Assembly: GCA_963663225.1 (NCBI GenBank)
Contig: OY760142.1
Coordinates: 1,696,001 to 1,760,000, forward strand
Direction of reading: 5' to 3'
Origin: Nitrospirota bacterium
GTDB lineage: Bacteria; Nitrospirota; UBA9217
Length of the DNA: 64,000 nt
Below the pieces are notes generated by a model. It searched no databases. It had not been told where the DNA came from and saw only the letters and a list, made by a program, of their open reading frames with translations. Position numbers and translations under genes: made by a program. The stretch's first letter is position 1. The number at the start of each line of letters is the position of its first letter. This document shows, one piece after another, positions 10,700-56,161 of this stretch.

Positions 10700-13600
10700 G
10701 AAGGAACCATCTCACCTATGCATCGGTCGCCGCGATCCTGATCGGCATGGCCGGACCGACCTTCCTGAGTGACGCGCTTGCCGCCGACGTGCGCGGACGG
10801 ATTTTGGACCGCAGCAGTACGCTGGAACAGCCGGCCCCGCCGAGTTCCGAATCGGACATCGGAGCGCTTGCGACAGCATCCGGCATGCCGGGAAGCGATG
10901 TTCTTATCATGCGTGAATCGGCCAAAAAACTTCCGGGCACGTCTCCCCGCTTCACCACGGTGATGCGGGACGAAAAACGGAATCCTTTCTTTGCGTCCGG
11001 AAGCGCGGTCATGACCGCGTCTGTCCGCAAACACCTCGATGCTCTGGTGCGGGATATTGCGGGCAAGAGAAATATTATGATCGCGATTACGGGCCATACG
11101 GACAACGAGCGGATCAGCGCCAGGCTCAAGTCGCAGTTTGCCGACAACCAGGCCCTCTCGGAAGCCCGCGCTTTTGTCGTGGCAGCGCATCTCAGGACGG
11201 CCCTCAAACTTGATGCGACGCAGTTTGCCGTTGCCGGAAAAGGCGAGGAAAACCCTGTCGCTGATAATGCAACAGAGGAAGGGAGGGCAGCGAACCGGCG
11301 CGTCGAAATACAGGTCTGGTACGACGAGGTGCAGGATGCGCCGAAAGGCGTTGAAGCCGCCCCGCAGTGCGGGTCGTCAGACCAGTCTGCTCGGATCCCG
11401 TTCAATATCACGGTGGACGGTGTGCCGATGGAAAAAGAAAAAGGCGGGACTGAAGCCGATCGGCAGCGCTGCGCAGATATTGCTCTCGAAAAAGCGGACA
11501 TTCGCATACACTACGATCCCCTTGCGACGGCACCGGCCCTGAACATCTGGACCACGCCGAACGGCGCGCTGCGTTCAACGCCGCTGTCCTTCTACACGTA
11601 TTCCAACTATGCGTTCTGGATCAAGCGGGCGGAGATCCGGATTTTTGAAAAAGGCGCGAGCAGCCAGCAGCGTCCTTACGCCATAGTGCCGGTCAGGATC
11701 AATGAATCGGCATCCTGGCAGGCGCCTGCTGACGCGCCCGACCGGCTTTATTTTCTACTCCGGGTGTATGACGAAAAAGACAGATTCGACGAGACCGCCG
11801 CAAAGGAGCTGATTCTGCTCGCGTCCCGCAAACCACAGCCGGACGAAGAGAGTCAGGAGCGTGAACGGCGGATCGGATACGGCGAAAACAGCCGCGTACT
11901 CGCGAATATTCCCGCGCAGGGCGGGACGATCACCGTGGACGGCGCAAAAATACGGCAGGGACAGTCCGTTACCGCTCTCGGCATGCCGGTTCCCATAGAT
12001 CGGAACGGGAAGTTTGCACTACGCCAGATCATGCCGGCCGGACCGCATGCGGTCGAGGTGTCGGTCCTTGACGAAAAAGGACACGGAATGGTCTACCGCA
12101 GAAATATTTCGATTCCGGACCATGGCTGGTTCTATGTTGCGATCGGCGATCTTACCGTCGGCCGCAATTCCACCTCGGGACCCGCACAGCTCGTTACGAA
12201 TGAAGCGACCGACCACTATGACAACAAAACCTATATTGACGGACGAGGCGCTTTCTATCTCAAAGGAAAGATCAAAGGTGACTATCTCCTGACCATGAGC
12301 GCGGACACGCGCGAACGTCCGATCAGGGACCTGTTCAGCAATTTCGATTCCAAGGACCCGAGTTATCTGCTCCGGAGCATTAACCCGGACACATACTATC
12401 CGGTTTACGGCGATGACAGCACCATTGTCGACGATGCGCCCACGCAGGGCAAGTTCTATGTCAAGATCGAAAAGGGAGATTCATCGATCATGTGGGGGAA
12501 TTTCCAGACGCAGTGGACCGGCACCGAGCTGACGCAATACAGCCGCGGTCTCTACGGCGCAAATTTGGTCCTGTCGCCGCAGGCCACCACGAAATACGGG
12601 GAGCGCACAACAGCGGTGAATGCATTTGTTGCAGAGCCGGGAACGCTCGCTTCGCGGGAGGAGTTTCGGGGCACGGGCGGTTCACTGTATTATCTGCAGC
12701 ATATGGATATCACCCAGGGATCGGAACGGGTTTGGGTGGAAATCCGGGACAAAGACTCCCAGATGGTGCTTGAACGGCATCAGCTTGCCTCTGCGCAGGA
12801 TTACGACGTCAACTATTTGCAAGGGAGGATCATGCTTCGGGCCCCGCTTCCGTCCGTTGCGGACGGCAGTACGCTGGTACAGACATCCATATTGAACGGG
12901 AACCCGGTTTTTTTGGTAGTGTCGTATGAGTATGTACCGGGAATGACCGAAATAGGCGGCTTCGCAGGCGGAGTGCGCGCGACGCAGTGGCTGAACGACA
13001 ACATCCGCCTCGGGGTGACGGGGTACCGTCAGGGCGAAGACCAGTCACGGCAGGGACTGGCCGGAGGCGATTTCATTCTGCGCTACAAGCCGGGTACCTA
13101 TATGAAGGGCGAATTCGCGCATTCCGAGGGGGCGGGCACCGGGACCCAGTCATCGATTACCGGAGGGTTCGGTTTTAACACGCTTCAGGGGAATGATTCA
13201 GACCGCGCGAGCGCCTGGCGCTTGGAAGGCGCGCTGGATTTCAGCGAATTACGGGAAGGCTCGAAAGGGAAAATTTCCGCCTATTGGCAGAACCGGGAAC
13301 GGGGATTTTCAGGCCCGGGCCAGGTCACGCTGGACAGCGAGCGCATGGAACAGGCCGGTCTTGCAGCACAGCTGCCGCTCGGTGAAAAAATAACACTCGG
13401 TTTGAAGGCGGACAACCGGGACTCCGACAGCCAGACATTCCGTGCAGGGGAAGCGTCGCTTGCCTACCGCGCGAACGATTCGGTGACGGTCTCAGCCGGC
13501 GTGCGCGCTGATGACCGGAAAGTGGTTGTGCCGAATGCGAGCCAAACCCTGTCAGAGGACGGCGAGCGGGTGGACGCCATTGCCCGCATCGATTACCGGC

Positions 13601-14970
13601 CGCTTGCGAAAAAGCAGGCCGAGCGAGCATCCGCGCAAAAGCCGCTCAGTGAATCGGAACAGAAGCAGCCCCAACCGGCAGAGCAGTCCGCCATCGCAAC
13701 GCAGTCCACGGCGACCGTGATATCAAGCGCACCGACGTCGACAGCTGCGCCGCAAGCCGATGCAAAACCCGCGGTCCAGTACGAACCGTGGGGACTGTTT
13801 GCATACGGCCAGGGAACTCTGGCCCGTTCCGGATCGCGGTCGGAGAATGACCGGGTTGGCGTTGGCGCAAACTGGCAAATAACGCCGCGATTTAAACTTG
13901 AAGGAGAGGTCTCGACCGGGGACGGAGGCGTTGGCGGCAAGCTTTCGGGAGACTACCGCATCGATGATCGCAGCAATGTCTATTTGACGTATATAAACGA
14001 AACAGACCGTCCGGAGCTCGCCTATCGCGGCAGGATCGGCACGTTTGTTCTGGGCAGCGGATATAAGATTTCCGGCCAGACCCGGGTGTACACTGAATCG
14101 CGCTGGGTAAACGGAGCCGGCCCCGACAGCCTGGTGCAGGCATTCGGTCTCGATTATGCGCCGAATGACCGGTGGACGTACGGGGTCAAGGGAGAGATCG
14201 GCGAGGTCAATGACGAGGTTTCCGGCGACCTGAAGCGCTATGCTCTCGGGTTGTCAGCGGCCTATAAATATGAGGGGCTCAAATACGCGGGCGCCCTTGA
14301 GTACCGGAATGAGTCCGGGACGATCGAAAAGCGTGAAACCTGGCTGCTCAAAAATTCCACGGGGTATCAGGCGACCCCTTCCCTGCGGCTGCTCGGCAAA
14401 TTGAACTTTTCCTACAGCCATTCATCACAGGGAGATTTTTACGACGGCAACTACACGGAGCTGGTTGCGGGCGCCGCATACCGCCCTGTGCAGCACGACA
14501 AGCTGAACACGCTCTTTAAATATACCTATTTTGCGAATGTGCCGTCGCCCGGCCAGCTGACGCCGACCAATCTCGTGGCGGATTATTCCCAGCGGAGCCA
14601 TGTTCTGTCGATCGACACCATTTACGATCTCGTATCATGGCTTTCCATCGGAGCAAAATACGGTCTTCGCATCGGAGAGCTGAAAATGACAAAGACCGAC
14701 GGCGATTGGTATTCGAGCCGGGCCGACCTTATTGTTCTGAGAGCGGATTTTCATCTTGTGCGCGAGTGGGATGCGCTTATTGAAGCACGCAGGTTGAAGG
14801 TATACGAGGCGGGTGATGAACGGATGGGCTTCCTTGTCGGGATATACCGGCATGTTACCAACAACGTCAAAATAGGCGCAGGGTACAATTTTACCGATTT
14901 CTCCGACAACCTGACGGATTTGTCCTACCGCAGCAGGGGCTGGTTTGTGAACGTTGTCGCCGCATTCTAA
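10696..14970 (+). CDS. OmpA-like peptidoglycan-binding domain fused to a large predicted outer-membrane beta-barrel
   Basis: Signal peptide, then GHTD...NQALSEARA...NRRVEI (OmpA/MotB C-like), ~900 aa of amphipathic beta-strand pattern, and C-terminus GWFVNVVAAF (BAM beta-signal). ATGA overlap with the upstream gene. Confidence 0.85.
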   Translation: MRRNHLTYASVAAILIGMAGPTFLSDALAADVRGRILDRSSTLEQPAPPSSESDIGALATASGMPGSDVLIMRESAKKLPGTSPRFTTVMRDEKRNPFFASGSAVMTASVRKHLDALVRDIAGKRNIMIAITGHTDNERISARLKSQFADNQALSEARAFVVAAHLRTALKLDATQFAVAGKGEENPVADNATEEGRAANRRVEIQVWYDEVQDAPKGVEAAPQCGSSDQSARIPFNITVDGVPMEKEKGGTEADRQRCADIALEKADIRIHYDPLATAPALNIWTTPNGALRSTPLSFYTYSNYAFWIKRAEIRIFEKGASSQQRPYAIVPVRINESASWQAPADAPDRLYFLLRVYDEKDRFDETAAKELILLASRKPQPDEESQERERRIGYGENSRVLANIPAQGGTITVDGAKIRQGQSVTALGMPVPIDRNGKFALRQIMPAGPHAVEVSVLDEKGHGMVYRRNISIPDHGWFYVAIGDLTVGRNSTSGPAQLVTNEATDHYDNKTYIDGRGAFYLKGKIKGDYLLTMSADTRERPIRDLFSNFDSKDPSYLLRSINPDTYYPVYGDDSTIVDDAPTQGKFYVKIEKGDSSIMWGNFQTQWTGTELTQYSRGLYGANLVLSPQATTKYGERTTAVNAFVAEPGTLASREEFRGTGGSLYYLQHMDITQGSERVWVEIRDKDSQMVLERHQLASAQDYDVNYLQGRIMLRAPLPSVADGSTLVQTSILNGNPVFLVVSYEYVPGMTEIGGFAGGVRATQWLNDNIRLGVTGYRQGEDQSRQGLAGGDFILRYKPGTYMKGEFAHSEGAGTGTQSSITGGFGFNTLQGNDSDRASAWRLEGALDFSELREGSKGKISAYWQNRERGFSGPGQVTLDSERMEQAGLAAQLPLGEKITLGLKADNRDSDSQTFRAGEASLAYRANDSVTVSAGVRADDRKVVVPNASQTLSEDGERVDAIARIDYRPLAKKQAERASAQKPLSESEQKQPQPAEQSAIATQSTATVISSAPTSTAAPQADAKPAVQYEPWGLFAYGQGTLARSGSRSENDRVGVGANWQITPRFKLEGEVSTGDGGVGGKLSGDYRIDDRSNVYLTYINETDRPELAYRGRIGTFVLGSGYKISGQTRVYTESRWVNGAGPDSLVQAFGLDYAPNDRWTYGVKGEIGEVNDEVSGDLKRYALGLSAAYKYEGLKYAGALEYRNESGTIEKRETWLLKNSTGYQATPSLRLLGKLNFSYSHSSQGDFYDGNYTELVAGAAYRPVQHDKLNTLFKYTYFANVPSPGQLTPTNLVADYSQRSHVLSIDTIYDLVSWLSIGAKYGLRIGELKMTKTDGDWYSSRADLIVLRADFHLVREWDALIEARRLKVYEAGDERMGFLVGIYRHVTNNVKIGAGYNFTDFSDNLTDLSYRSRGWFVNVVAAF

Positions 14971-31473: not shown

Positions 31474-31740
31474 ATGAGCATTAAATTCAAACCATTGAAG
31501 GACAGGGTATTTGTGAGTTATACCGCGGAACTGGAGAAAACCGCCGGCGGGCTTTATATTCCGGACACCGCAAAAGAGAAACCGCAGAGCGGCAAAGTAG
31601 AGGCAGTTGGTGAGGAAGTAAAAACACTCAAGGTTGGTGACAGCATACTTTTTGACCGTTATTCCGGCTCCAAGATAAACCTTGACAATGTTGAATATCT
31701 GATCGTAAAAGAAGAAGATGTGCTTGGTGTTCTGAGCTGA
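31474..31740 (+). CDS. groES: Co-chaperonin GroES
   Basis: KPL.DRV, TAGGLYIPDTAKEKPQ.G.V.AVG motifs. Confidence 0.97.
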   Translation: MSIKFKPLKDRVFVSYTAELEKTAGGLYIPDTAKEKPQSGKVEAVGEEVKTLKVGDSILFDRYSGSKINLDNVEYLIVKEEDVLGVLS

Positions 31741-31793
31741 TGCTCTGACGGCAAATCTGAGAATGCAACAACAACGGTATAATCCGGAAATGA

Positions 31794-33449
<1,656 letters not shown>

Positions 33450-33500
33450 GAGATTCTGAAGCATGAAGATGCATCCGCATATCACGAGGAACTGACTAGA

Positions 33501-33535
33501 AGCCGGCAGGGGAACCCCTTTGCCGGCTTTTTTTT
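33501..33535 (+). terminator. Intrinsic terminator after groEL
   Basis: AGCCGGCA...TGCCGGCT stem followed by a T run. Confidence 0.85.
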
Positions 33536-33587
33536 CAGAAAAATATTGAACTCCGAGCAACTCAAAAAAACGGTGAAGAGGCATGCT

Positions 33588-34319
33588 ATGAAATTGACGG
33601 CAACGGTACTGATGTTCGCGCTTTTTGCGTTTCCTGCCGCCGCGCAGAATGCGTTCGAGAAAGATCTGATCAAAACAGCCGCCGGCGGCCTGGAAATCAC
33701 TTTTATCGGCCATGGTTCATTGCTTCTGAAATTTCAGGACAAGATCATCCATGTAGATCCCTTCGGCACGCTCGCGGACTATTCCAAACTGCCGAAGGCG
33801 GACATGATTCTTATCACGCACGAGCATTATGATCACCTTGATGCAGCGGCGATCGACAAAATCCGGACGAAAGAAACCATGGTGGTTCTGACTGCGGCCG
33901 GTGCAGGAAAGCTTCCCGGCGGCAGTGTCATGAAAAACGGCGACGTACAGACGATACTGGGGATTACCATCGAAGCCGTCCCTGCCTATAATCTGGTGCA
34001 CAAGCGCGATACGGGCCAGCCCTTTCATCCGAAGGGACAGGGCAACGGATACGTGCTGACTTTTGGCGACAAACGCGTTTATATCGCCGGCGATACGGAA
34101 AACACACCCGAAATGAAGGCGCTGAAAAACATCGACATCGCGTTTCTGCCGATGAATCTCCCCTATACCATGACGCCCGAGATGGTCGCGGATGCCGCAC
34201 TGGCATTCAAGCCGAAAATTCTGTATCCGTACCATTACGGCGATACGGATACATCGAAAATCACGGCCTTGTTGAAGAACAACAAGGATATCGAAGTGCG
34301 GATACGCAGGATGAAGTAG
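33588..34319 (+). CDS. Secreted metallo-beta-lactamase-fold hydrolase
   Basis: Signal peptide AAA-Q, then THEHYDH, YIAGDT and PYHY motifs. Confidence 0.9.
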   Translation: MKLTATVLMFALFAFPAAAQNAFEKDLIKTAAGGLEITFIGHGSLLLKFQDKIIHVDPFGTLADYSKLPKADMILITHEHYDHLDAAAIDKIRTKETMVVLTAAGAGKLPGGSVMKNGDVQTILGITIEAVPAYNLVHKRDTGQPFHPKGQGNGYVLTFGDKRVYIAGDTENTPEMKALKNIDIAFLPMNLPYTMTPEMVADAALAFKPKILYPYHYGDTDTSKITALLKNNKDIEVRIRRMK

Positions 34320-34414
34320 AGAAAAACGGTCTGTTGCGCGGAAGCGAAAACCCCTTGCATTTTGAGCAGGGTTGTCATATTCTTACGAAAACCTGCATAC
34401 CTCAGGGGGTTGCC

Positions 34415-40545: not shown

Positions 40546-41838
40546 ATGAAAGAAACCTCTGTCGCAGCACGTGCAAAACGCAAGGCATATCTGAACATTG
40601 TCTTGCCGCTGTTTATCACCTCCGTCATTGCGTATCTCGACCGGGTGAACATCGGCTATGCAGCACTGACCATGAACAAGGACCTGGGGCTTACCGCTCA
40701 AATGTTCGGCATGGGAGCGGGGATATTTTTTGCCGGTTATATCCTGTTTGAAATACCCGGGGCGCTAATCGCGGAGAAATACTCGCCGAGAATCTGGCTG
40801 GCGCGCATCATGCTCACGTGGGGGCTGGTGTCCGGACTGATGGCTTTCATGGTCAATGAATGGCACTTTTATATTTTGCGGTTTCTGCTGGGCGCTGCCG
40901 AAGCAAGCTTGTATCCCGTTATCTATGCCTCGTGCATCCCGCGCTGGTTTGGCCCGAAGGATCGGGCGCGGGCAATCGCCATTCTTCTGACCTCGTTGCA
41001 GATTTCCGGTATTGTCGGAGCGCCCATGGCAGGCTGGCTGCTCGGGGTGCCCCTGTTCGGTTTCAAAGGCTGGCAGGGCTTGTTTATCATTGAGTCCGTG
41101 CCCGCGATCCTTTTTGCTTTCATAATCATCTATTGGATGGCGGACCGTCCAAGCGAAGCAAAGTGGCTGACGGCAGAAGAAAAGAAATTTCTCACGGAAC
41201 AGTATGAAAAGGAAGTTGCTGCAAAAGTCGCAGTCAGGCATTATACGGTACTGCAGGCGTTCAGAGAGCCGGAAGTGCTTAAACTTTGCCTGGCGTATTT
41301 TTTATGGATAACCGGTTTCTGGGGTTTTAATTACTGGATGCCGACCGTGCTTAAATCACTGTCCGGGTGGTCCAATCTTGCCATCGGCTGGCTCATGGCA
41401 ATTCCCATGGGAATTTCACTCCTTACCATGCTGTATATCGGCCACTCTTCGTCAAAAAAGCGTGAAAAGAGATGGCATGGCGCCATTGGAATGTTTATCG
41501 GAGCAATCGGTCTCGGAGTCGGCGTGTTTATCAAGGACCCCTGGATTGCCTTCTTTTTTGTGATTCTTGCGGGAATCGGCGTTTTCGCGCCGTTTGGCGT
41601 CTGGTGGTCCTATCCGACAACCTTTCTGTCAGGTACTGCCGCCGCCGGAGCCATTGGTCTGATAAATTCCTGCGGCAATGTCGGCGGATTCGTCGGGCCG
41701 TATGTGACCGGCTGGATCAAGCAGGCGACCGGAACGTTTACCGGCGCCTGGGTATATTTGGCCATTTCTCTTACGCTGGCGGGGCTGCTGATCCTCACGT
41801 TTAAAAAAGACCTGCCTGCCGACGGAGTGGAACCATAA
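40546..41838 (+). CDS. MFS transporter, anion:cation symporter (TtuB-like) family
   Basis: YLDRVNIG.A, GIFFAGY.LFEIP, RFLLG.AEA and AAGAIGLINS.GN.GGF.GP motifs. Confidence 0.92.
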   Translation: MKETSVAARAKRKAYLNIVLPLFITSVIAYLDRVNIGYAALTMNKDLGLTAQMFGMGAGIFFAGYILFEIPGALIAEKYSPRIWLARIMLTWGLVSGLMAFMVNEWHFYILRFLLGAAEASLYPVIYASCIPRWFGPKDRARAIAILLTSLQISGIVGAPMAGWLLGVPLFGFKGWQGLFIIESVPAILFAFIIIYWMADRPSEAKWLTAEEKKFLTEQYEKEVAAKVAVRHYTVLQAFREPEVLKLCLAYFLWITGFWGFNYWMPTVLKSLSGWSNLAIGWLMAIPMGISLLTMLYIGHSSSKKREKRWHGAIGMFIGAIGLGVGVFIKDPWIAFFFVILAGIGVFAPFGVWWSYPTTFLSGTAAAGAIGLINSCGNVGGFVGPYVTGWIKQATGTFTGAWVYLAISLTLAGLLILTFKKDLPADGVEP

Positions 41839-41959
41839 CCCTCGACGAAACTCGAGGGATGTTATGTCGCCGGTGTTGATATGCCGGCACTTCCACCGCA
41901 AGTTTTCGATGTGATGATCAAAGGTTTCAAAACGAGCGATGGTGCTGTATAATAATCAT

Positions 41960-42922
41960 ATGTATCTGCCGCTATTTTTGGGTCTTGCCGTCGGCGTGGC
42001 GTTTGGATATGTGTCGCAGCGCGGACGATTCTGAATGCTCTCGACCTGCTACGAGGTCGTGACCGGCCGTGAGCCGAACATGCTGAGAGCGTATCTGCTG
42101 GCAGTGCTCGTGCAGATGCTTGCGGTAAATGTGCTGGCGGAGTTCGGATATCTGCGGGTAGCTGTTCCGCCGTATTTCGGGTTTGCGACCATCATCGCCG
42201 GATTCATTTTCGGCATCGGGATGGTGCTTTCGGTCGGATGCGCAGGCGCCGTGTTCTACCGGGTCGGCGAAGGGAAGCTTGACTATCTTTACGTGGTGGC
42301 TGCGTTTGCCCTGTCTGCCTGGTTCAGCAACGACTGGCTGGTCGGGCCAATCCATCGGTTTTTCCACGGCACGAACACCTCCGCGACCCTCCACCATGCC
42401 TTGACAATTGATCGTCTGCTTCTTGCCGTGACTATTGCTGTGGCGCTCACTCTCTGGGTCATCAGGGGGCGCAACCACGCGGCCCAGGGAATCTGGAAGT
42501 GGCCGGCCACCGGCCTGTGCATCGGCCTGATCGGCATTGCAGCGTGGACTGTACGCGCTGCCGGCGGCAAACCGTATGGGCTTGGGACCATGCAGGGCAG
42601 CGATGGACTTGCGACGTTATTGCTTCAGTGGGACGTATCAGCGATTGACGGGAGCCTGCTGATGGTCCTGGGCATTCCTCTGGGTTCCTTCATCGCTTCC
42701 CGCACCCGCGGCAAATCACCGGGGTTGCCTCTTCATTCCAAGCGGATCATTCGTGCCATTGCAGGAGGACTTCTCATGGGAACGTCGGCCGCTGTTGCCG
42801 CCGGCGACAACATGCTTCACGGCCTGAGCGGTGTCCCGATTCTTGCGGTCAGCAGTTTTCTTTTCATGCTGTTCATGTTTCTTGGAGTATGGGCAGGGAT
42901 AAAGCTCAACTGGCTTCGTTGA
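41960..42922 (+). CDS. YeeE/YedE (TsuA-like) sulfur/selenium-compound transporter, predicted selenoprotein (TGA 42032-42034 = Sec25)
   Basis: ATG 41960 gives MYLPLFLGLAVGVAFGYVSQRGRF, then TGA, then the 295-aa track ORF in frame. The TGA sits at the Cys of the family motif G-x3-QRGRFC; GMVLSVGC...YRVGEG follows. Confidence 0.85.
42042..42059 (+). promoter_or_regulatory. Candidate bacterial SECIS hairpin for the YeeE-like gene
   Basis: CGACCT-GCTACG-AGGTCG is a perfect 6-bp stem starting 8 nt after the TGA, with G first in the loop. Confidence 0.55.
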
Positions 42923-47816: not shown

Positions 47817-48770
47817 ATGAAATTCCAAGACAAAGTCATTGAAACCGGGGAAAAACCGCTGCAGGCCCTGCAAAGCAGAATATTGCAGGCAAACCTGGGC
47901 TATCGCTGCAATATGGGTTGCAAGCATTGCCATGTGTCCGGTGGACCGGCACGGCCCGAGGTGATGGACCAAAAAACCGCGGAGCAGGTCCTTCGGGTCT
48001 TTCTGGAGAATCCCTTTGAGTTGCTGGATCTCACGGGCGGCGCCCCGGAATTGAACCCGTCCTTTCGGCTGATGGTGGCTGAAGCGCGCGGGGCGGAACG
48101 GAAGGTCTTGTCCCGGACAAACCTTACGATCTTTTTTGAAAAGGGAATGGAATATCTTCCGGAGTTTTACCGGGAGCATCAGGTTGAGTTGATCGCATCG
48201 CTTCCGTATTATCTTGAGGAGAACGTTGACCGCGTGCGCGGCGCTGGCGTGTATAGGAAAAGTATTGAGTCCCTTCAGGTGCTGAACCGGCTGGGCTTCG
48301 GCATGGAATCATCGAATCTCACCATCAGTCTTGTCTATAATCCGCAGGGGATGTTTTTCGCGCCCGACCAGCAGACCCTTGAGTCGGAATTCAAGCGTGA
48401 ACTCAGGGAACGGTACGGCGTTTTCTTCACTCGGTTGTACACATTCACGAATATGCCGATCGGCAGGTTCAGGGACTATCTGATCAGAACGAATAATCTG
48501 AACGCTTACATGGAAAAACTTTCGCGCGCGTTTAATCCGGCTACCCTTGACAATGTCATGTGCAGGCATCTGGTGAATGTAGGATGGGATGGAACGTTGT
48601 ATGACTGCGACTTCAACCAGGTGCTTGGACTCGGCATGCATGCGGATTTGCCGCGGCATATTACGGGTTTTAATTACGCGAAGTTCACGGGCCGCACTAT
48701 TACCGTTGATGACCATTGCTACGGCTGCACGGCCGGGCAAGGATCGTCCTGAGTGGGCGCGGTTGCCTAG
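47817..48770 (+). CDS. arsS: ArsS-type radical SAM protein, predicted selenoprotein (TGA 48750-48752 = Sec312; true stop TAG 48768-48770)
   Basis: CNMGCKHC, DLTGGAPELN, LVYNP.G, NMPIGRF and YDCDFNQ motifs. The C-terminus HCYGCTAGQGSS-TGA-VGAVA-TAG matches the family ending CTAG.GSSCGGA. Confidence 0.85.
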
Positions 48771-48783
48771 CAGGCGGTCGCCT
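48755..48783 (+). promoter_or_regulatory. Candidate bacterial SECIS hairpin for arsS
   Basis: GGGCG/CGCCT lower stem and GTTGCCT-AGC-AGGCGGT upper stem, with the loop G 18 nt after the TGA. Confidence 0.55.
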
Positions 48784-48999
48784 GCTGAAAAACCAATCTG
48801 ATGGGTTGCTTTCACGTCGTTCCCGCATAAATTTTCAGCACAATCTTTCCTGCTTTCGGCTCCATAGCGATTAAGTATTATATTACTTGTTCGTCGCGTC
48901 GAGCTGCTCAAATTTTTCTTGGAAAAACATAAAAAATGATGTAAAATTTGAAAAACTGCATTACTGGCCAATCTGCAGTTCAGAAAAAGGGCGGTCTAC

Positions 49000-51624
49000 T
49001 TGAAAAAGTTTTTTTCACTATCCATCCGGGCCCGACTGTTCCTGATTACCCTGATAGTGGCCCTTCCTGCGGCGGGGATCATTATTTACTCCGGATTGAA
49101 GCTGCGGGATGAGGCAATTCAGGATGCGCGCGAAGAAACCCGGAAAATCGCGGAGAGCATTGCCGCGGAACAGCAAAGCCTTGTTACAGCCGCGCAGCAG
49201 CTTATCATAGCCTTAACTCAATTGCCTGATGTCAAAAATCAGAATCCCTCCCGTGTCCAGCCTGTTTTAAAAAATATCCTCGCGTTAAACGAACAATATT
49301 CGAATATCTTCATAGCCGACCGCAGCGGCCGTGTCTGGGCAACGGCGGTGCCGGTAAAGCCGCCGTTCATTATTTCCGACCGCCGGTATTTCGTGAATGC
49401 GATCGCAAGCGGCCGCCTGTCATCCGGGGAGTTTATCATCAGCAGGGCCACGGAAAAACCCTCGTTTAATTTTGCCTATCCCCTGCGAAACGAACGCGGT
49501 GAAATTACCGGAACAATCAATGTCGGGTTTGTAACGGATTCCTTTACGCCGTTACTGGAGCGCACCAACCTGCCGCAGGGAACAGTTTACATGCTTCTTG
49601 ACCATGCGGGACGCGTGATGAGCAAATCCATCGATCCCGCGAAGTACCTTGGAAAGCAGATTGCCCCAGCGCTTTTTGCGCGCATGAAAAAAGGCGCTGT
49701 CATGGAGACGTTCATCGGCGTCGATTTTGACGGCACTGAACGCATTATAACCTACCGTAAACTGCATCTTGCGGGAGAAGAATCTCCCTACATGTATGTC
49801 CGTGCCGGCATCCCGGTCACCGTCGTTTTGTTCGATGCGAACAAGGTGCTGTTCGGTAATTTGGCGTTGTACTCGTCTTTTCTTTTGCTCGCGTTTTTCG
49901 TCGCCTCCTACATCGGCAAACGTTTGATTGCTGATCGCATCAGCCTTTTGGAAAAGGCCTCCCGCGACCTTGCCCACGGAGATCTGCAGACCAGAATTTC
50001 CGACCTCGTCGCCGGCGGCGAACTGGGGAACCTGGGCCGGACATTCGACGACATGGCGAGTCAGCTTGCAGCGCGGGAACAAGCGCTGGTTGAAAGTGAA
50101 AAAAATTATCGCGAAATATTCAACACCTCGCAAGACGCCATATGTGTACTGAATGCAGTGTCCGGGGAAATTACGGAAATGAACAAGACCGTTGAAACAA
50201 TGTTTGGGTATTCCCGGAAAGAGCTGCTTCATCAGACAGTGGAGGCAATCAGCGCAGGGGAACCTCCCTACTCACGGCAGGAAGCTTTGGAATGGATCCA
50301 AAAGTCATTTCAGGAAGGGCATCAGCTGTTCGAATGGTTGTGCAAAAAGAAGAACGGAGAACTGTTCTGGACGGAAGTGGTTCTGTCAGCCACTCATGTT
50401 GGAGAAAAAGGACGCGTGCTTGCGGTCATCAGAGATATTTCCGAGCGCAAGCGGGCGGAAGAAGAGAAGCAGAATCTGCAGCTGCAACTGGTCCAGTCGC
50501 AAAAAATGGAGTCCATCGGCCGTCTGGCGGGTGGTGTTGCGCATGATTTCAACAACATGCTGAGCGTCATCCTGGGCTATACGGAATTAATAAAAAACCG
50601 CTTGCCAGGAAATGATCCCTTTCTTCCCGACCTTCAGGCAATAGAAAAGGCGGCCTGCCATGCCCGTGACGTGACTACCCAGCTTCTTGCGTTTTCCCGA
50701 AAACAGGTCATCGTGCCTGTGCCGATAAACCTGAACGACATTATCGCCGACACCCAAAAAACGCTTGCTCCACTTATCGGGGAAGACATCGAGCTTCTGT
50801 TTGAACCGAGCATCTCTCTTTGGAACATCATGTTCGACCCTTCACAAATCAAGCAGATTCTCGTAAATTTGGCGGTGAACGCCCGGGATGCCATGCCTGC
50901 CGGCGGCAAACTTATCATCAAAACGACCAACAAATCCATACGGGATTTCCACTATCACGACCACGGCCCACATATCCTGGGAGACTATGTGCTTCTGGAA
51001 GTGAGCGACAATGGACATGGTATGGATGCGGAGACCATTTCCCACATATTCGAACCGTTTTTTACCACAAAGGGTGTTGGCGAGGGGACCGGGCTTGGGC
51101 TTGCCACGGTCTACGGGATTGTCGAACAAAACGGAGGGTTTGTCAGCGTTTCCAGCATGCAGGATGTGGGGACCACGTTCAGCGTGTATATTCCAAAAAG
51201 CATGGAGCAGCCGGCAAAACCTGCACAAACTGAAGCAATACAAGCTTCTACCGGAACCGGCAGAATCCTGCTGGTCGAAGATGATTCTATGGTGTCCAAA
51301 TTGCTGGTCGATATGCTTTCTTCAATCGGGTACACGGTTTTTCTGGCGAACAAACCTGCCGATGCGGTATCCTTGTGCACAAAAAGCGAAATAGAAATCG
51401 ATCTTCTCATCACGGATGTTATCATGCCGGATATGAACGGCAGGGAATTAAGAGACCAGATCAAGCTGCTTCGTCCGGAAATCAAAGTCCTGTTCATGTC
51501 CGGCTACGCATCAGATGTAATTGTGCACCAGGGCATTCCGGAAGAAGAGATGCACTTCATACAAAAGCCGTTCAGTATTGCTGATGTCGCACACAAGATC
51601 CAGGACGTGCTCAGAGCTTCATAA
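49000..51624 (+). CDS. Hybrid sensor histidine kinase (Cache-HAMP-PAS-HisKA-HATPase-REC)
   Basis: Two TM segments, GGVAHDFNN H-box, NLAVNARDAM, FEPFFTTK, GTGLGL and C-terminal LLITDVIMP...MSGY...KPF. Confidence 0.95.
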   Translation: MKKFFSLSIRARLFLITLIVALPAAGIIIYSGLKLRDEAIQDAREETRKIAESIAAEQQSLVTAAQQLIIALTQLPDVKNQNPSRVQPVLKNILALNEQYSNIFIADRSGRVWATAVPVKPPFIISDRRYFVNAIASGRLSSGEFIISRATEKPSFNFAYPLRNERGEITGTINVGFVTDSFTPLLERTNLPQGTVYMLLDHAGRVMSKSIDPAKYLGKQIAPALFARMKKGAVMETFIGVDFDGTERIITYRKLHLAGEESPYMYVRAGIPVTVVLFDANKVLFGNLALYSSFLLLAFFVASYIGKRLIADRISLLEKASRDLAHGDLQTRISDLVAGGELGNLGRTFDDMASQLAAREQALVESEKNYREIFNTSQDAICVLNAVSGEITEMNKTVETMFGYSRKELLHQTVEAISAGEPPYSRQEALEWIQKSFQEGHQLFEWLCKKKNGELFWTEVVLSATHVGEKGRVLAVIRDISERKRAEEEKQNLQLQLVQSQKMESIGRLAGGVAHDFNNMLSVILGYTELIKNRLPGNDPFLPDLQAIEKAACHARDVTTQLLAFSRKQVIVPVPINLNDIIADTQKTLAPLIGEDIELLFEPSISLWNIMFDPSQIKQILVNLAVNARDAMPAGGKLIIKTTNKSIRDFHYHDHGPHILGDYVLLEVSDNGHGMDAETISHIFEPFFTTKGVGEGTGLGLATVYGIVEQNGGFVSVSSMQDVGTTFSVYIPKSMEQPAKPAQTEAIQASTGTGRILLVEDDSMVSKLLVDMLSSIGYTVFLANKPADAVSLCTKSEIEIDLLITDVIMPDMNGRELRDQIKLLRPEIKVLFMSGYASDVIVHQGIPEEEMHFIQKPFSIADVAHKIQDVLRAS

Positions 51625-51654: not shown

Positions 51655-52704
51655 ATGCTTCAAAAAAAGCTCCATTCACTGTTTCTTCCCCGTTTTGACT
51701 GGATTCAGGTCGAGGTAACCTCGTTTTGCAATGCTTCGTGTTTTTACTGTCCGCATACGGTTTACCGCGAGCGCTGGACCAGCAGGCATATGCCTCTTGA
51801 AATGTTCAAGCGGCTCATTCCGGTTTTAAAAAAAACAAAACTTGTCTACCTCCAGGGCTGGGGCGAGCCTTTCCTGCATCCTGATTTTTTCTCCCTGGCC
51901 GCGCTGGCCAGGGAAGCCGGCTGCAGCGTGGGAACGACGACAAACGGCATGAACCTAGACAGCGCCTGGGTTGAACGGATAATCCAATCTCGGCTGGATA
52001 TTCTTGGTTTTTCTCTTGCCCATACGGATTCCCAGAATGATTTTTTAAGGCAGGGCACGCACTTGGAGCAGGTGCTCGGCCTGATCCGCAGCGTAACGGA
52101 GGCAAAACGGAAGGCCGGAACGGAAAAGCCGGTTATTCATGTCGCATATTTGCTGCTGGAATCAAACAAACGCGACGCGCGGCGCCTCCCCGGGCTGCTG
52201 AACGGCCTTGGCGTTCATGAAGTGGTGATCAGCACGCTTGACTGCGTCGCTGCTCCGGAACTCAAAAAAGAATTGGTGGAGCTTGGCACGGAAGATGAGC
52301 GCGAGCGGCTCCGTGATTATTTAAAAAGCATCTGCGCTGAGGGAGAACGCGCTGGTCTGCCGATCCACTACCAAATTGGAAATTGCGGTCGGAAGAAGCT
52401 GTACTGCAGCGAGAACATCCAAAAAGCGGCGGTCATTTCAGCCTCAGGGGATGTGTTTCCCTGCGTTTTTATGAATTTGGCGCCGGAGGAACCGAACAAC
52501 GCACATGATCAACGTTCTGCGGAGCGCGTTTGTTTTGGAAACATCGCTCAAGAGCCGCTTGAAAAAATTTGGAGAAGTGACGCATACAAAAAATTCCGCC
52601 GTTCCTTTTCCCGGGAGCGCCTTGCGCCCAGGTGCGCGCATTGTCTGAAACTGTATCTCGACAGCGGAGGTCCGTCCTCACCACAACAATCGCAGTCATT
52701 TTGA
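51655..52704 (+). CDS. Radical SAM protein with a SPASM/twitch domain
   Basis: CNASCFYC and LQGWGEP, with C-terminal C...GDVFPC...FGNI...C..C. Confidence 0.9.
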   Translation: MLQKKLHSLFLPRFDWIQVEVTSFCNASCFYCPHTVYRERWTSRHMPLEMFKRLIPVLKKTKLVYLQGWGEPFLHPDFFSLAALAREAGCSVGTTTNGMNLDSAWVERIIQSRLDILGFSLAHTDSQNDFLRQGTHLEQVLGLIRSVTEAKRKAGTEKPVIHVAYLLLESNKRDARRLPGLLNGLGVHEVVISTLDCVAAPELKKELVELGTEDERERLRDYLKSICAEGERAGLPIHYQIGNCGRKKLYCSENIQKAAVISASGDVFPCVFMNLAPEEPNNAHDQRSAERVCFGNIAQEPLEKIWRSDAYKKFRRSFSRERLAPRCAHCLKLYLDSGGPSSPQQSQSF

Positions 52705-52812
52705 TACCGAACTGCTTTCCGCATACAGAAACAGGATGGTTGGTCTCTCTCCCGACGGAGCCGGTACGCGCGCGGGAATTTTAAAAAATACTACGACACA
52801 GGATAAACAAGC

Positions 52813-54111
52813 ATGAGACCGCGTGTTCTGCTTATCAATCCATGGATATATGACTTCGCGGCGTACAATCTCTGGTCAAGCCCGCTGGGTTTGCTGAAAG
52901 TTGCGGAATATCTGAGCCGCTGTGAGGTTGAACTTTTCCTGATCGACTGCACCGATTCATTTGGCGCGAAGCAGTACGGCACCGGAAAATACCGCACCCA
53001 GCACGTGCCGAAGCCGGATTTGCTGAAAAGCGTTCCGAGATACTACAAACGATACGGCATGGACGTTGATGAGTTCATAGCCAGGATCAAGTCCTGCCTG
53101 CCTGTGGATATGGTGCTGGTGACTTCGATCATGAGTTACTGGTACCCCGGCGTGCAGGAAACGATCAGAACCGTAAAAAAAGCCGTCCATGACGTTCCTG
53201 TCGTGCTTGGAGGCATTTATCCAACGCTCTATCCGGAGCATGCGGCGGCACATTCCGGCGCAGATCATATCTATTCCGGGCCGGCGGATGAACGCCTTTT
53301 TCCTTTTTTGCAGGAGTGCGGACTGCCACTCAGTTCTCCGCGCGATCCCCTGCCGTATTATGAGCTTGGCCTGGACGTGCAAAACCGCTTTGCTCCTCTC
53401 CAGACTTCATCCGGCTGCCCTTTTACTTGCTCCTACTGCGCCTCGCAATTCTTGTCTTCCGGTTATGAGCGAAGATCTCACGAGGATGTTTCGAAGGAGA
53501 TTTCGGCGCTCTCCGGCAGAGGAATCCGCGATTTTGCTTTTTATGATGATGCGCTGCTATATGATGCAGACAATCATATTAAACCGCTCTTAGAGATGAT
53601 TATTCAGCAGGGTTTTTCCGTCAGGCTTCATGCCCCCAATGGATTGCACGCGCGTTTTCTGGATGCAATAACGGCAGGTCTCATGATGAACAGTGGATTC
53701 AGGACCGTGCGCCTCAGTTTCGAAACATCCGATCCCGTGCGGCAGGAGCGCACCGGCAGCAAGGTTTCGACAGGGGATATTGCTCAGGCAATCGGGGTAT
53801 TACAAAAGCATGGGTTTTTCAAGGAGCAGATCGGGGTATATCTTTTATTCGGTCTACCCGGGCAGGGATTGGATGAAGTGGAGGACGGAATAGCAATTCT
53901 GCAGAAATTCAATGTGCGGATTTTTCTGTCCGAGTTTTCCCCCATCAAAGGCACGGCATGCTGGAATGAACTGGTGCAAGAGGGGACCATTCCCGATGAT
54001 CTCGATCCGCTTTATACCAACAACACAGTCTTTTCATTTCTGTATTCCGGTTATGACCATGCACGGGTAAGCCGGATAAAGCTCAGGGTGAAGGAATACA
54101 ACAAACAATAG
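52813..54111 (+). CDS. B12-binding-domain radical SAM protein
   Basis: INPWIYDFAAY, MSYWYPG, LGGIY, SGCPFTCSYC and FYDDALL motifs. Confidence 0.9.
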   Translation: MRPRVLLINPWIYDFAAYNLWSSPLGLLKVAEYLSRCEVELFLIDCTDSFGAKQYGTGKYRTQHVPKPDLLKSVPRYYKRYGMDVDEFIARIKSCLPVDMVLVTSIMSYWYPGVQETIRTVKKAVHDVPVVLGGIYPTLYPEHAAAHSGADHIYSGPADERLFPFLQECGLPLSSPRDPLPYYELGLDVQNRFAPLQTSSGCPFTCSYCASQFLSSGYERRSHEDVSKEISALSGRGIRDFAFYDDALLYDADNHIKPLLEMIIQQGFSVRLHAPNGLHARFLDAITAGLMMNSGFRTVRLSFETSDPVRQERTGSKVSTGDIAQAIGVLQKHGFFKEQIGVYLLFGLPGQGLDEVEDGIAILQKFNVRIFLSEFSPIKGTACWNELVQEGTIPDDLDPLYTNNTVFSFLYSGYDHARVSRIKLRVKEYNKQ

Positions 54112-54185
54112 GCAGCCAGCAGCAGAAAGAGTGCTGTTGCCGGGAATCGATGCCGCCGATTGTGAAATATGCGGTGCCGATGGGA

Positions 54186-55052
54186 CTATTTCCCATCCCA
54201 CCCCGCGAGGCGCGCCATCATGACCCAGAATGCCTTTGCTTTCAGTTTGCAGACATACGCCATGGAAGCGTCGCCGCCTTGAACGCTCCCGTCCGAATGT
54301 CCGCAGGAGGCCGGAATATCGGCGCAATCCGCGGGATGGGCAGCGCACCATTTCGGGCACCAGCTGCATTCGCCGTTTATTCCTCCGGACCCGGAATAGT
54401 ATTTCCCATTCGGATCGTAGGATTCGATGTCGGCAAAATCAAAAAGTACTTTTCCGTTTTTTCTGGCATACTCCCGGATACGGTCGTTGTTTCTGCTGAG
54501 CGTGGCGCTCCCTCCGTCCACGTGTCCGGTCATATAGATGAAGCGCATATGCTTGAACTCCGATTCCAGCTGGTTCATCTTTTTCAGATAGGTATTGACG
54601 AAATCCGCGTTTGAAGACGACATCTCTCCGCACCATGAGTACATCGAAAAATTGAATTCGCCCATCCGGGAGGCGCGTCTGGTTCTTTCCATCCCGGATT
54701 CAGTGCTCCAATAGGATTCCGGTCCCAGGCTTTCTCGATAGATGCGGAGAACGGGCGGGTTTTCTTTCGGCGGCAGTCCGGGGGCCGAGGAGAACATGAC
54801 TGCAACGCGGTAATTCGGATTTGCTTTTCCGAGCGTTTCAAGGCCGGTGATGATTTGCTTGCCGTGTGACAGGTGTATATAGTAAAGAGTCGATTCTCTG
54901 GCCTTGTCGAGATACTTTTTCGGGATTCGGTCGAACGCCGCCACCGACGTGTGGTCGATGATAAGCGCCTCAGGCAGTACGCGGTCTTCGCATGTTCCGT
55001 TGGAAACCGCCAGAATAAGAAAAAGTATTGCTGCGGCTGCTGTCCTTGTCAT
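54186..55052 (-). CDS. Secreted hypothetical protein (possible SGNH-like fold) with a Cys-rich C-terminus
   Basis: Signal peptide, IIDHT, H.SHG.Q, SWCG, YMTGH.DG and FDFADIESYDP blocks. Start trimmed to ATG 55052. Confidence 0.7.
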   Translation of the reverse strand: MTRTAAAAILFLILAVSNGTCEDRVLPEALIIDHTSVAAFDRIPKKYLDKARESTLYYIHLSHGKQIITGLETLGKANPNYRVAVMFSSAPGLPPKENPPVLRIYRESLGPESYWSTESGMERTRRASRMGEFNFSMYSWCGEMSSSNADFVNTYLKKMNQLESEFKHMRFIYMTGHVDGGSATLSRNNDRIREYARKNGKVLFDFADIESYDPNGKYYSGSGGINGECSWCPKWCAAHPADCADIPASCGHSDGSVQGGDASMAYVCKLKAKAFWVMMARLAGWDGK

Positions 55053-55285
55053 GTCGCATGCCCGCCTTTCTTCTCCGGAGTGTGCTGATAAGGAATGCAA
55101 TTTTATAATAGCACAACCCGTGGTTCTTGAATAGAGCATTGCAGATTTCGTGAATGATTTTTGCCCTGTTTCGGTTGTGTGTGCATCCAGCAAGATCGCC
55201 TGCGGACTGCGACTTGAACCCGCGGTTTTTTGTCTTTGACATTTGAAGGATATGCAGTATACTTCGCCGACGCGAGGGCTCTCCT

Positions 55286-56161
55286 ATGCCGGAATACATC
55301 GGTACCGTCATCAGGCCTCCGAGCGAGGCCGACAGTCTGGTTCTTCAGTACACCATCGGGTGTTCCCACAACCGCTGCGTTTTCTGCCCTGCCTATAAAC
55401 AGAAACAGTTCCGTGTACGGAGCATTCGTGAAATGGAAACAGACATTGAGTCCTGCTTGCCTTCCTGCCGCGATGCGCGCAGGATTTTCCTGGCTGACGG
55501 TGATGCGCTCGCGGCTCCCCAGGAGGAGTTGCTTGCGCTGTTTGCTCTTTTGCACGCTCGTTTCCCCCGGCTATCACGCATCAGCATGTACGCAAACGCA
55601 GGGAGTGTCCTCGGCAAAAGCGTAGCAGAACTCGCACAACTCCGTGAACAAGGCCTGGGCATTCTCTATCTGGGCGTTGAATCCGGAGACGACAATGTGC
55701 TCGACTGGATGCAAAAAGGGGTAACGTCCGACGAAATGCTGGAGGCAGGCAGACGCGTGAAGGAATCGGGAATAAAGTTGTCGGTCACGGTTTTGCTCGG
55801 CATCGGTGGAAGCACCTGGAGCAAACAGCACGCACAGGCAACCGGAAGACTGCTTTCAAAACTAAAGCCGGACCACGTTGGAGCTCTTACCACCATGGTG
55901 GTTCCCGACACGCCGCTCCACCTGTTGAAGGAGGCAGGTGATTTCAGCCTTCCCGATCCATTCTCTCTCTTGCTTGAACTTGCCGAAATGATCGAGCACA
56001 CGGAAATGCGGGGGCTTTTCTTTGCGAATCATGCATCGAACTACCTGCCGCTGAGGGTCCGCATGCCGGTGCAGCGCACCGCGGCGGTCGCGATGATCAG
56101 GCAGTGCGTGCACCATGCGGATGAATCCCTCTTAAAACCGGAATGGCTGAGAGGGTTGTGA
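55286..56161 (+). CDS. Radical SAM protein
   Basis: IRPPSEA.S, GCSHNRCVFC, FLADGDAL, G.ESG and NHASNY motifs. Confidence 0.9.
   Translation: MPEYIGTVIRPPSEADSLVLQYTIGCSHNRCVFCPAYKQKQFRVRSIREMETDIESCLPSCRDARRIFLADGDALAAPQEELLALFALLHARFPRLSRISMYANAGSVLGKSVAELAQLREQGLGILYLGVESGDDNVLDWMQKGVTSDEMLEAGRRVKESGIKLSVTVLLGIGGSTWSKQHAQATGRLLSKLKPDHVGALTTMVVPDTPLHLLKEAGDFSLPDPFSLLLELAEMIEHTEMRGLFFANHASNYLPLRVRMPVQRTAAVAMIRQCVHHADESLLKPEWLRGL

Follow-up and report, generated by a model that had tools for sequence, protein, structure and literature searches.

YeeE (TsuA) is a thiosulfate transporter of the Sulf_transp family (PF04143). In the S. thermophila protein (StYeeE; PDB 6LEO, 6LEP and 8K1R) three conserved cysteines, C293, C91 and C22, line the narrow centre of an hourglass, ∼7 Å apart (Tanaka et al. 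2020, PMC7449682). The same study reported that thiosulfate is bound by C293 on the periplasmic side, that C22 lies on the cytoplasmic side and that C22 and C91 form a disulfide in the StYeeE crystal. All three cysteines were described as essential in E. coli YeeE, yet the C22A variant of StYeeE complements. Subsequent work placed C22 at the interface between YeeE and YeeD, beside the catalytic C17 of YeeD, and proposed that R28 and R98 steer the ion towards C17 (Ikei et al. 2024, PMC11073785). YeeE/YedE is also a tabulated selenoprotein family. The entry in a 2026 review (PMC13188914) gives PF04143, the motif GUxSG, one selenocysteine (Sec) and the example WP_012471001.1; the same entry appears in a 2022 review (PMC9312934), and a supplementary table of Peng et al. 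2016 counts five sequences in five organisms. Here we describe a gene at positions 41960-42922 of a 64,000-nucleotide stretch of contig OY760142.1 from a Nitrospirota bacterium (assembly GCA_963663225.1; the whole stretch is referred to as the window). Sequence comparisons indicate that this gene very probably encodes a YeeE-type inner-membrane protein of 320 residues in which the UGA at codon 25 specifies Sec.

The ATG at 41960 opens a run of 24 sense codons (MYLPLFLGLAVGVAFGYVSQRGRF) that specify a hydrophobic helix ending in QRGRF, and the run is followed by an in-frame TGA. A further ATG, directly after the TGA, opens the 295-residue open reading frame (ORF) 42035-42922 of the mechanical ORF list, which remains open until the terminal TGA at 42920-42922. 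Reading through thus gives 320 residues, the 25th being specified by the recoded codon. All of these elements are present in the sequence as an initial annotation of this DNA had described them, and its central proposal, a 320-residue membrane selenoprotein with Sec25 at the first conserved Cys, is upheld by profile and structure matches that extend across the TGA (PF04143 and PDB 6leo), by the pairing of Cys with TGA in homologues and by a covarying RNA element.

Residues 21-312 match positions 1-310 of the 310 in the Pfam Sulf_transp profile (181 bits; cut-off 27). Residues 6-312 align with residues 3-322 of StYeeE (6leo; E = 1.7e-28), and in this alignment residue 25 corresponds to C22, C94 to C91 and D283 to C293, while R101 and E104 fall on R98 and E101, which are conserved. 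The NCBIfam TsuA models also align from residue 5-6, upstream of the TGA. For the read-through protein, AlphaFold2 run on an alignment of 39 sequences gave a model with a mean predicted local distance difference test (pLDDT) score of 89.9 and a predicted TM-score of 0.89, which contains a helix at residues 3-22 (pLDDT 90-96), a loop at 23-25 and a second helix at 26-35. Foldseek superimposes this model on 6leo with TM-scores of 0.90/0.88, such that the protein displays both the Sulf_transp domain and the nine-helix hourglass fold of YeeE/TsuA. As the profile, 6leo and model matches all reach across the TGA, the 24 upstream codons encode the first transmembrane helix of the YeeE fold (helix H1) and not a leader. 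Of the three conserved YeeE cysteines only the C91 position is kept as Cys, the other two being Sec25 and Asp283. An additional Cys is found at codon 30 (42047-42049), five residues past the Sec (U-M-L-S-T-C), in the window, L001, L002, L006 and L013 of the loci described below; the residue is Ser or Phe in the remaining loci. Cys30 might serve as a lineage-specific resolving cysteine.

A protein search returned 564 matches at E ≤ 0.001 among 8,000 candidates scored, of which the best 120 were examined; the counts of proteins that follow refer to these 120. One clade, marked by GDN where YeeE has GGC-N, accounts for 81 of the matches. Sixty-six of the 81 clade proteins start exactly at Met26, after the TGA column, and 12 start later or are fragments. 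The remaining three (P0028, P0055 and P0060) are full-length and contain Cys at this column, in the motif QRGRFCM; P0028 is 63% identical. The RFC pattern is matched by 37 of the 39 non-clade proteins, and the outgroup carries GGC at the C293 site. The view that automated annotation would shorten the protein is therefore correct for the 66 entries that start at Met26.

A scan of genome contigs identified 13 full-length loci (L001-L013) and one fragment, all in metagenome-assembled genomes (MAGs). Four full-length loci are from Nitrospiraceae, three from delta proteobacterium/Syntrophales (Thermodesulfobacteriota), two, plus the fragment, from NC10/Methylomirabilota, and four from Chloroflexota. 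TGA occupies the codon-25 column in the window and in all 13 full-length loci, in four phyla, and these 14 sequences span 52-97% protein identity. The upstream helix is kept as protein in every one of the 14. Across 19 well-aligned upstream codons, 12, 8 and 19 columns are variable at codon positions 1, 2 and 3, respectively, and pairwise codon differences upstream of the TGA comprise 719 synonymous versus 437 non-synonymous changes. Judged from these codon comparisons, the 24 upstream codons are under purifying selection. The locus thus combines a UGA conserved in orthologues, homologues with Cys at the UGA column and homologous coding sequence on both sides, and the search for Cys/TGA pairs at column 25 with conservation to either side, which the initial annotation had proposed, gave a positive answer.

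The history of the position was explored with a tree of 94 rows (IQ-TREE, LG+G4, support from the Shimodaira-Hasegawa-like approximate likelihood ratio test only). Left out were P0016, P0071, P0080, P0081 and P0086 (<275 residues), P0002 (identical to the window ORF) and the outgroup P0101-P0121. The GDN clade forms one branch with 100% support versus 18 GGC-type proteins. The Cys-containing P0028 lies deep within rows assigned as Sec, as sister to P0031 and P0038 (support 100), while P0055 and P0060, also Cys forms, group with P0062 near the base of the clade. Read most simply, this topology would mean that Cys gave way to Sec once, roughly when Asp replaced the periplasmic Cys, and that Cys was regained once or twice thereafter, although 59 of the 73 rows scored as Sec owe that state to a missing N-terminus and not to DNA, and long branches meet at the root.

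Bacterial selenocysteine insertion sequence (SECIS) elements of the E. coli fdhF type, as summarized in the Zhang and Gladyshev consensus (PMC13188914), are stem-loops located inside the coding sequence just 3' of the Sec-UGA, and the RNA of this locus is likewise structured there. The segment 42032-42100 (69 nt), which the initial annotation had singled out for folding, reaches -25.4 kcal/mol (z = -2.9), and only two of 200 shuffled sequences fold as well. In an ungapped RNA alignment of 72 nt around the UGA in the 14 sequences, RNAalifold, unguided, predicts two hairpins, H1 and H2 (Table 1). Hairpin H1 is the perfect CGACCT-GCTACG-AGGTCG hairpin that had been noticed from the window alone. 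Hairpin H2 has 4 bp in the window (42064-42067 with 42073-42076) and a loop at 42068-42072, 33 nt past the UGA. Over 13 distinct rows and 12 pairs (156 cells), 91.7% of cells are paired (92.3% for hairpin H1), and five of the 12 pairs have changed on both sides. The observed values were reached by none of 500 column shuffles on four measures and by two of 500 on a fifth, while a control with slid partners gave 24-43% paired. One pair of hairpin H1 (columns 24/39) occurs as GC in eight rows, CG in three, AU in one and GU in one, at synonymous third positions of Ser and Val codons; similarly, a pair of hairpin H2 (columns 45/57) is CG in 11 rows and UA in two, at synonymous third positions of Thr and Pro codons. 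Among 11 sequences (the near-copies L001, L002 and L009 were dropped), the fraction of identical codons at same-residue pairs is 0.67 in codons 29-41 compared with 0.40 in the other codons up to codon 135. Judged from the alignment, the RNA 3' of the UGA contains two conserved, covarying hairpins under synonymous-site constraint.

Comparison with the bacterial SECIS (bSECIS) criteria given in section 5 of PMC13188914 separates the two hairpins. In all 14 sequences hairpin H2 conforms to the limits stated there for the loop (G at position 2, then U or G), the stem (4-5 bp) and the spacing (33 nt). Folded alone it yields -4.6 to -8.9 kcal/mol, and the -7.5 kcal/mol of the model is reached by seven of the 14. 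The hairpin named in the initial annotation is H1. That it is conserved and covarying is confirmed, but it lies only 13-14 nt from the UGA in the terms of the model, which is too close, and its loop contains the G in just four of 14 sequences. Since hairpin H2 fits the loop, stem and spacing limits throughout, whereas hairpin H1 does not, H2 is most likely the SelB site, with H1 a conserved accessory or spacer helix. The locus differs from the bacterial SECIS model as set out in that section in having two hairpins, the conserved first one being closer to the UGA than is allowed. A long hairpin that ends in an AGGU apical loop, 19 nt past the UGA (42050-42061), forms instead in L001, L003 and L004, but was set aside: judged by eye it does not persist in L010-L013, it lacks conservation among the Chloroflexota loci and it shows no covariation. 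Its formation excludes hairpin H1, and it could matter in some lineages. Its loop resembles the classical GGU-type SECIS loop.

A second gene in the window is informative about Sec use in the organism. The radical SAM gene at 47817-48770 contains an in-frame TGA followed by five codons and a stop, and read-through yields a protein that ends in GSSU-VGAVA and matches TIGR04167, ‘arsenosugar biosynthesis radical SAM (seleno)protein ArsS', with 419 bits (cut-off 300), up to the last position of the profile. The ArsS gene is thus a probable second selenoprotein gene and, with its in-frame TGA and a hairpin 3' of it, is counted as Sec use in the same organism. The adjacent ORF 47293-47790 matches TIGR04169, an arsenosugar-associated peroxidase-like protein. 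In the supplement of Peng et al. 2016, Thermodesulfovibrio species are positive for Sec trait genes and Ca. Methylomirabilis oxyfera is listed with six selenoproteins, entries that fit two of the phyla in which the TGA was found.

Other explanations of the TGA are conceivable. If the UGA were the true stop of a 24-codon mini-ORF, the functional protein would be the 295 residues from the ATG at 42035, perhaps produced by termination-reinitiation with the hairpins serving the coupling. An ATG does stand right after the TGA in 13 of the 14 sequences, gene callers have picked it for the 66 of 81 clade proteins noted above, and the window offers no Sec machinery. Met26, however, is a family residue and not a start signal, the Cys relatives reading RFCM, and in L008 the codon after the TGA is ATA. 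A restart at ‘Met26' is thus impossible in L008, which nevertheless retains the TGA, the upstream helix and the hairpins. The shorter product would, in addition, lack helix H1 and half of loop LA, whereas the fold aligns end to end with 6leo, and a homologous Cys exactly at the stop column is the classical mark of Sec and not of a gene boundary; termination at this codon is consequently considered very improbable. Decay is the poorest of the explanations. Although a single window could not by itself decide between a decaying gene and a recoded one, a nonsense mutation or sequencing error is refuted by an identical TGA in 14 of 14 independent assemblies at 52-97% protein identity, which excludes a read-level error at 42032, and has against it the purifying selection on both sides of the TGA and a frame intact to the conserved C-terminus; its probability is close to negligible.

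The frame is clearly meant for read-through, and, as Sec machinery was not observed directly, UGA could instead be decoded as Trp, Cys or Gly by a reassigned code or near-cognate suppression, without selenium. TGA, however, ends 12 of the 34 family-supported ORFs in the window, the YeeE-type gene included, so that UGA is not reassigned here, and we know of no such reassignment in the four phyla. The covarying RNA element right past the codon and the Cys homologues also point to Sec, and the window also encodes ArsS, whose family is labelled by NCBI as ‘(seleno)protein'. Decoding as an ordinary amino acid has, in our estimation, only a slender chance of being correct. Several observations nonetheless count against the assignment of Sec. 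Only 14 sequences were verified as DNA, Sec in the other clade members being deduced from ORFs cut at the start, and kinship of the sequences can make the shuffle result look stronger than it is. As SECIS elements, both hairpins depart from the textbook form: H1 has the spacing and loop described above, H2 is weaker than -7.5 kcal/mol in half of the sequences, if the limit in the bSECIS section applies to a single hairpin, and the loop of the ArsS hairpin in the same window lies at a different distance from its UGA. No selA, selB, selC, selD or tRNA-Sec was found in the 64-kb window or the locus flanks. In the case of tRNA-Sec, its absence from the window and the 14 loci carries little weight as the flanks are short; a scan of the window at Rfam gathering thresholds reported two tRNAs only. 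Set against these points, the conservation of the TGA, the Cys pairing and the RNA covariation leave Sec insertion at codon 25 as the very probable reading.

The gene does not represent a new kind of system, as membrane-transporter selenoproteins, PF04143 included, have already been catalogued. The initial annotation's description of an unusual membrane selenoprotein is therefore only partly sustained: the position of the Sec appears new, while the family is among those tabulated in the reviews cited above. The tabulated YeeE/YedE selenoprotein and the window protein have in common PF04143, a predicted membrane location and a single Sec. Around its central cysteine, C91, StYeeE reads G-C-A-S-G, and it is this context, not R-F-U-M, that the tabulated motif G-U-x-S-G fits. 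In the window protein the central position is Cys (VGCAGA, the sole G-C-x-x-G context in the first half), and the Sec lies 69 residues upstream, in R-F-U-M-L. The clade described here thus appears to carry Sec at a different conserved cysteine from the tabulated type, the site of the latter being assigned by motif alone. A description of Sec in the RFC motif of YeeE was not found in the literature searched, in which two review tables and one supplementary count mention the family. YeeE/YedE is absent from the main text and two supplementary files of Zhang and Gladyshev 2008, the review's citation for the family, and the main text of the deep-Sep paper (PMC12013277) contains none of the terms YeeE, YedE, transporter or membrane.

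The selenium-metabolism membrane protein YedE/FdhT (TIGR04112, NF033796), proposed to transport selenium compounds (PMC5322559), is a distant member of the same superfamily. Its models score below cut-off against the window protein (TIGR04112, 33.8 bits versus 200; NF033796, 79.7 versus 350), and the matches are partial, pairing this protein's N-terminal half with the C-terminal half of the profile. No selD, YedF or SirA-like gene neighbours the gene in the window or in the loci examined.

Compared with StYeeE, with which the window protein has PF04143 and the fold in common, the loop motifs of the clade align (QRGRF-[C/U] at C22 and G-C-A-G at C91). C91, R98 and E101 are retained. In contrast, C22 is replaced by Sec, the periplasmic C293, which is indispensable in StYeeE, by Asp, and the YeeD-facing R28 by Tyr or Phe. 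An adjacent or fused YeeD/TsuB (TusA-like, PF01206) partner, one of the marks of TsuA, was not found for the clade. PF01206 had no match among 20 window ORFs or among 62 of the 119 flanking ORFs of the 13 loci, and tblastn with one query of limited sensitivity, the YeeD portion of fusion protein P0103, gave a best E-value of 0.43 against the window and the 14 loci; a YeeD encoded elsewhere in the genome is conceivable. Thus, of the initial assignment as a YeeE/TsuA thiosulfate transporter, the fold and family stand, but with Asp at C293 and no linked YeeD the term ‘thiosulfate transporter' expresses, for this clade, a resemblance rather than a demonstrated function.

The Asp at C293, the Tyr or Phe at R28 and the lack of a linked YeeD led us to propose a mechanism in which Sec25 acts at the exit site. 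SelB with Sec-tRNA(Sec) would be recruited by the RNA element, most probably through hairpin H2 and its loop, CGUGA, hairpin H1 being accessory or a spacer. Sec25 would then reside in loop LA, where the hourglass pore opens to the cytoplasm, ∼7 Å from Cys94 as judged from the positions of C22 and C91, and Cys94 is likely its selenenylsulfide or relay partner. The protein would conduct a reduced chalcogen oxyanion, thiosulfate or a related sulfur or selenium species, although this substrate is hypothetical and may not be thiosulfate. Sec25, a strong nucleophile that would cycle with Cys94, would capture the substrate or hand it over at the cytoplasmic exit, and the Sec25/Cys94 pair would in this way take over part of the role of YeeD, the cysteine of which classical TsuA needs for the exit step. 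This proposal for the exit site is tentative and rather doubtful. Several observations weigh against it. The NCBIfam TsuA cut-offs are not reached (NF052577, 158.8 bits versus 400; NF041049, 117.7 versus 645), and nothing in the gene neighbourhood is conserved across the 13 loci, which thus give no hint of a substrate. Furthermore, the codon-25 position may, by analogy, be dispensable for transport, as the reported StYeeE C22A variant still complements.

As a nucleophile and as a leaving group, Sec far surpasses Cys. A more far-reaching and distinctly unlikely proposal is that Sec25 makes the members of this clade self-sufficient transporters and sulfur/selenium transferases, or that the Sec/Cys/Asp triad has retuned the pore from thiosulfate to a selenium species or a soft metalloid. 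As a transferase, the selenol at the cytoplasmic exit would attack the chalcogen species to form an Se-S or Se-Se adduct, resolved by Cys94, so that one polypeptide would do the job of TsuA and TsuB.

Table 1. Positions in the window of the predicted selenoprotein gene, its parts and the ArsS-type gene.
Feature	Position	Strand	Remarks
Promoter-like site, TTCAAA-16 nt-TATAAT	41926..41953	+	consensus scan, 10/12 matches; 1 site found versus 0.7 expected
Full predicted selenoprotein gene, 320 codons + TGA stop	41960..42922	+	YeeE/TsuA-like Sulf_transp membrane protein; translation, profile and structure matches
24 codons before the UGA: first transmembrane helix, helix H1 (residues 3-22), and QRGRF, where loop LA begins	41960..42031	+	protein conservation 14/14
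Predicted Sec-UGA, codon 25	42032..42034	+	counterpart of C22 in S. thermophila YeeE and of C25 in E. coli YeeE
Hairpin H1, CGACCT-GCTACG-AGGTCG, perfect in the window	42042..42059 (UGA+10 to +27)	+	6-7 bp stem, begins 7 nt past the UGA
Hairpin H2, stem CCGGC/GCCGR, loop CGUGA	42063..42077 (UGA+31 to +45)	+	conserved, covarying
Cys94 codon TGC	42239..42241	+	counterpart of C91, the essential central cysteine in StYeeE; column invariant in three protein alignments
Asp283 codon GAC, in clade signature GDN	42806..42808	+	invariant in the clade alignment; in place of periplasmic C293 (GGC-N) of YeeE
ArsS-type radical SAM gene	47817-48770	+	in-frame TGA 48750-48752, then five codons + stop
ArsS hairpin	48768-48787	+	8 bp, GGUC loop 23 nt past the ArsS UGA

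Upstream of the YeeE-type gene, a -10-like hexamer (TATAAT or TAGAAT) followed by 6 nt and the start codon was read by eye in nine of the 14 sequences (the window, L001, L002, L004, L006, L008, L010, L011 and L012), and the Chloroflexota loci have a TTGACA -35 element as well. Because the hexamer ends 6 nt before the ATG, the sequence suggests that the mRNA is leaderless or nearly so. Such a leaderless mRNA, which the recurrence suggests to be conserved, would belong to a gene whose Sec codon comes only 24 codons in. A 7-bp GC-rich inverted repeat at 41839-41858, terminator-like on both strands, lies just past the stop of the upstream major facilitator superfamily (MFS) gene (40546-41838). From this arrangement the YeeE-type gene looks monocistronic and set apart from the MFS gene by the repeat.

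The wider context varies among loci. A UPF0182 gene follows the YeeE-type gene in three Chloroflexota loci, and a context of DinG-like helicase, MFS and aminotransferase genes is common only to the window and the two closest Nitrospiraceae MAGs. As this context is limited to those two MAGs and is not conserved across the loci, the flanking MFS transporters and MocR-type aminotransferase genes were not treated as partners. A second read-through candidate in the window, 31659-34382 on the minus strand (a 172-residue ORF, TGA and a 684-residue ORF), was rejected: it is antisense to groEL (31815-33449, plus strand; GroEL scores 884 bits), is of low complexity and has no family match. Elsewhere on the plus strand, two very large adjacent ORFs of 2,582 and 1,424 residues occupy 2951-14970. 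The first contains DUF11/B_ant repeats, SdrD-like repeats and an isopeptide-forming fimbrial domain, and the second an OmpA/MotB-like peptidoglycan-binding domain near its N-terminus. Also on the plus strand, a run of radical SAM genes (51655-56161), downstream of a hybrid histidine kinase (49000-51624), comprises a SPASM maturase, a B12-binding radical SAM protein and a third radical SAM protein; the best match of the SPASM maturase, a sub-threshold one, is to a tungsten-cofactor oxidoreductase maturase model.

Throughout the clade, which extends over at least four phyla, the first transmembrane helix and the Sec residue are missing from public protein sets, and family models, structure predictions and selenoproteome counts are consequently wrong for these organisms. 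The clade would represent a second, independent Sec site within one transporter family, served by a two-hairpin recoding element. The cysteine relay of YeeE is debated, with a hydrogen-bond relay and covalent chemistry as the opposing views, as is the contribution of YeeD. A natural variant with Sec at the exit cysteine and Asp at the entrance cysteine would provide a ready-made probe of this mechanism, because of the superior nucleophilicity and leaving-group properties of Sec. If the transferase or the retuned-pore proposal were true, Sec would be a residue of the transport path in a solved fold, which would give leverage on the question of whether the relay operates through hydrogen bonds or through covalent intermediates.

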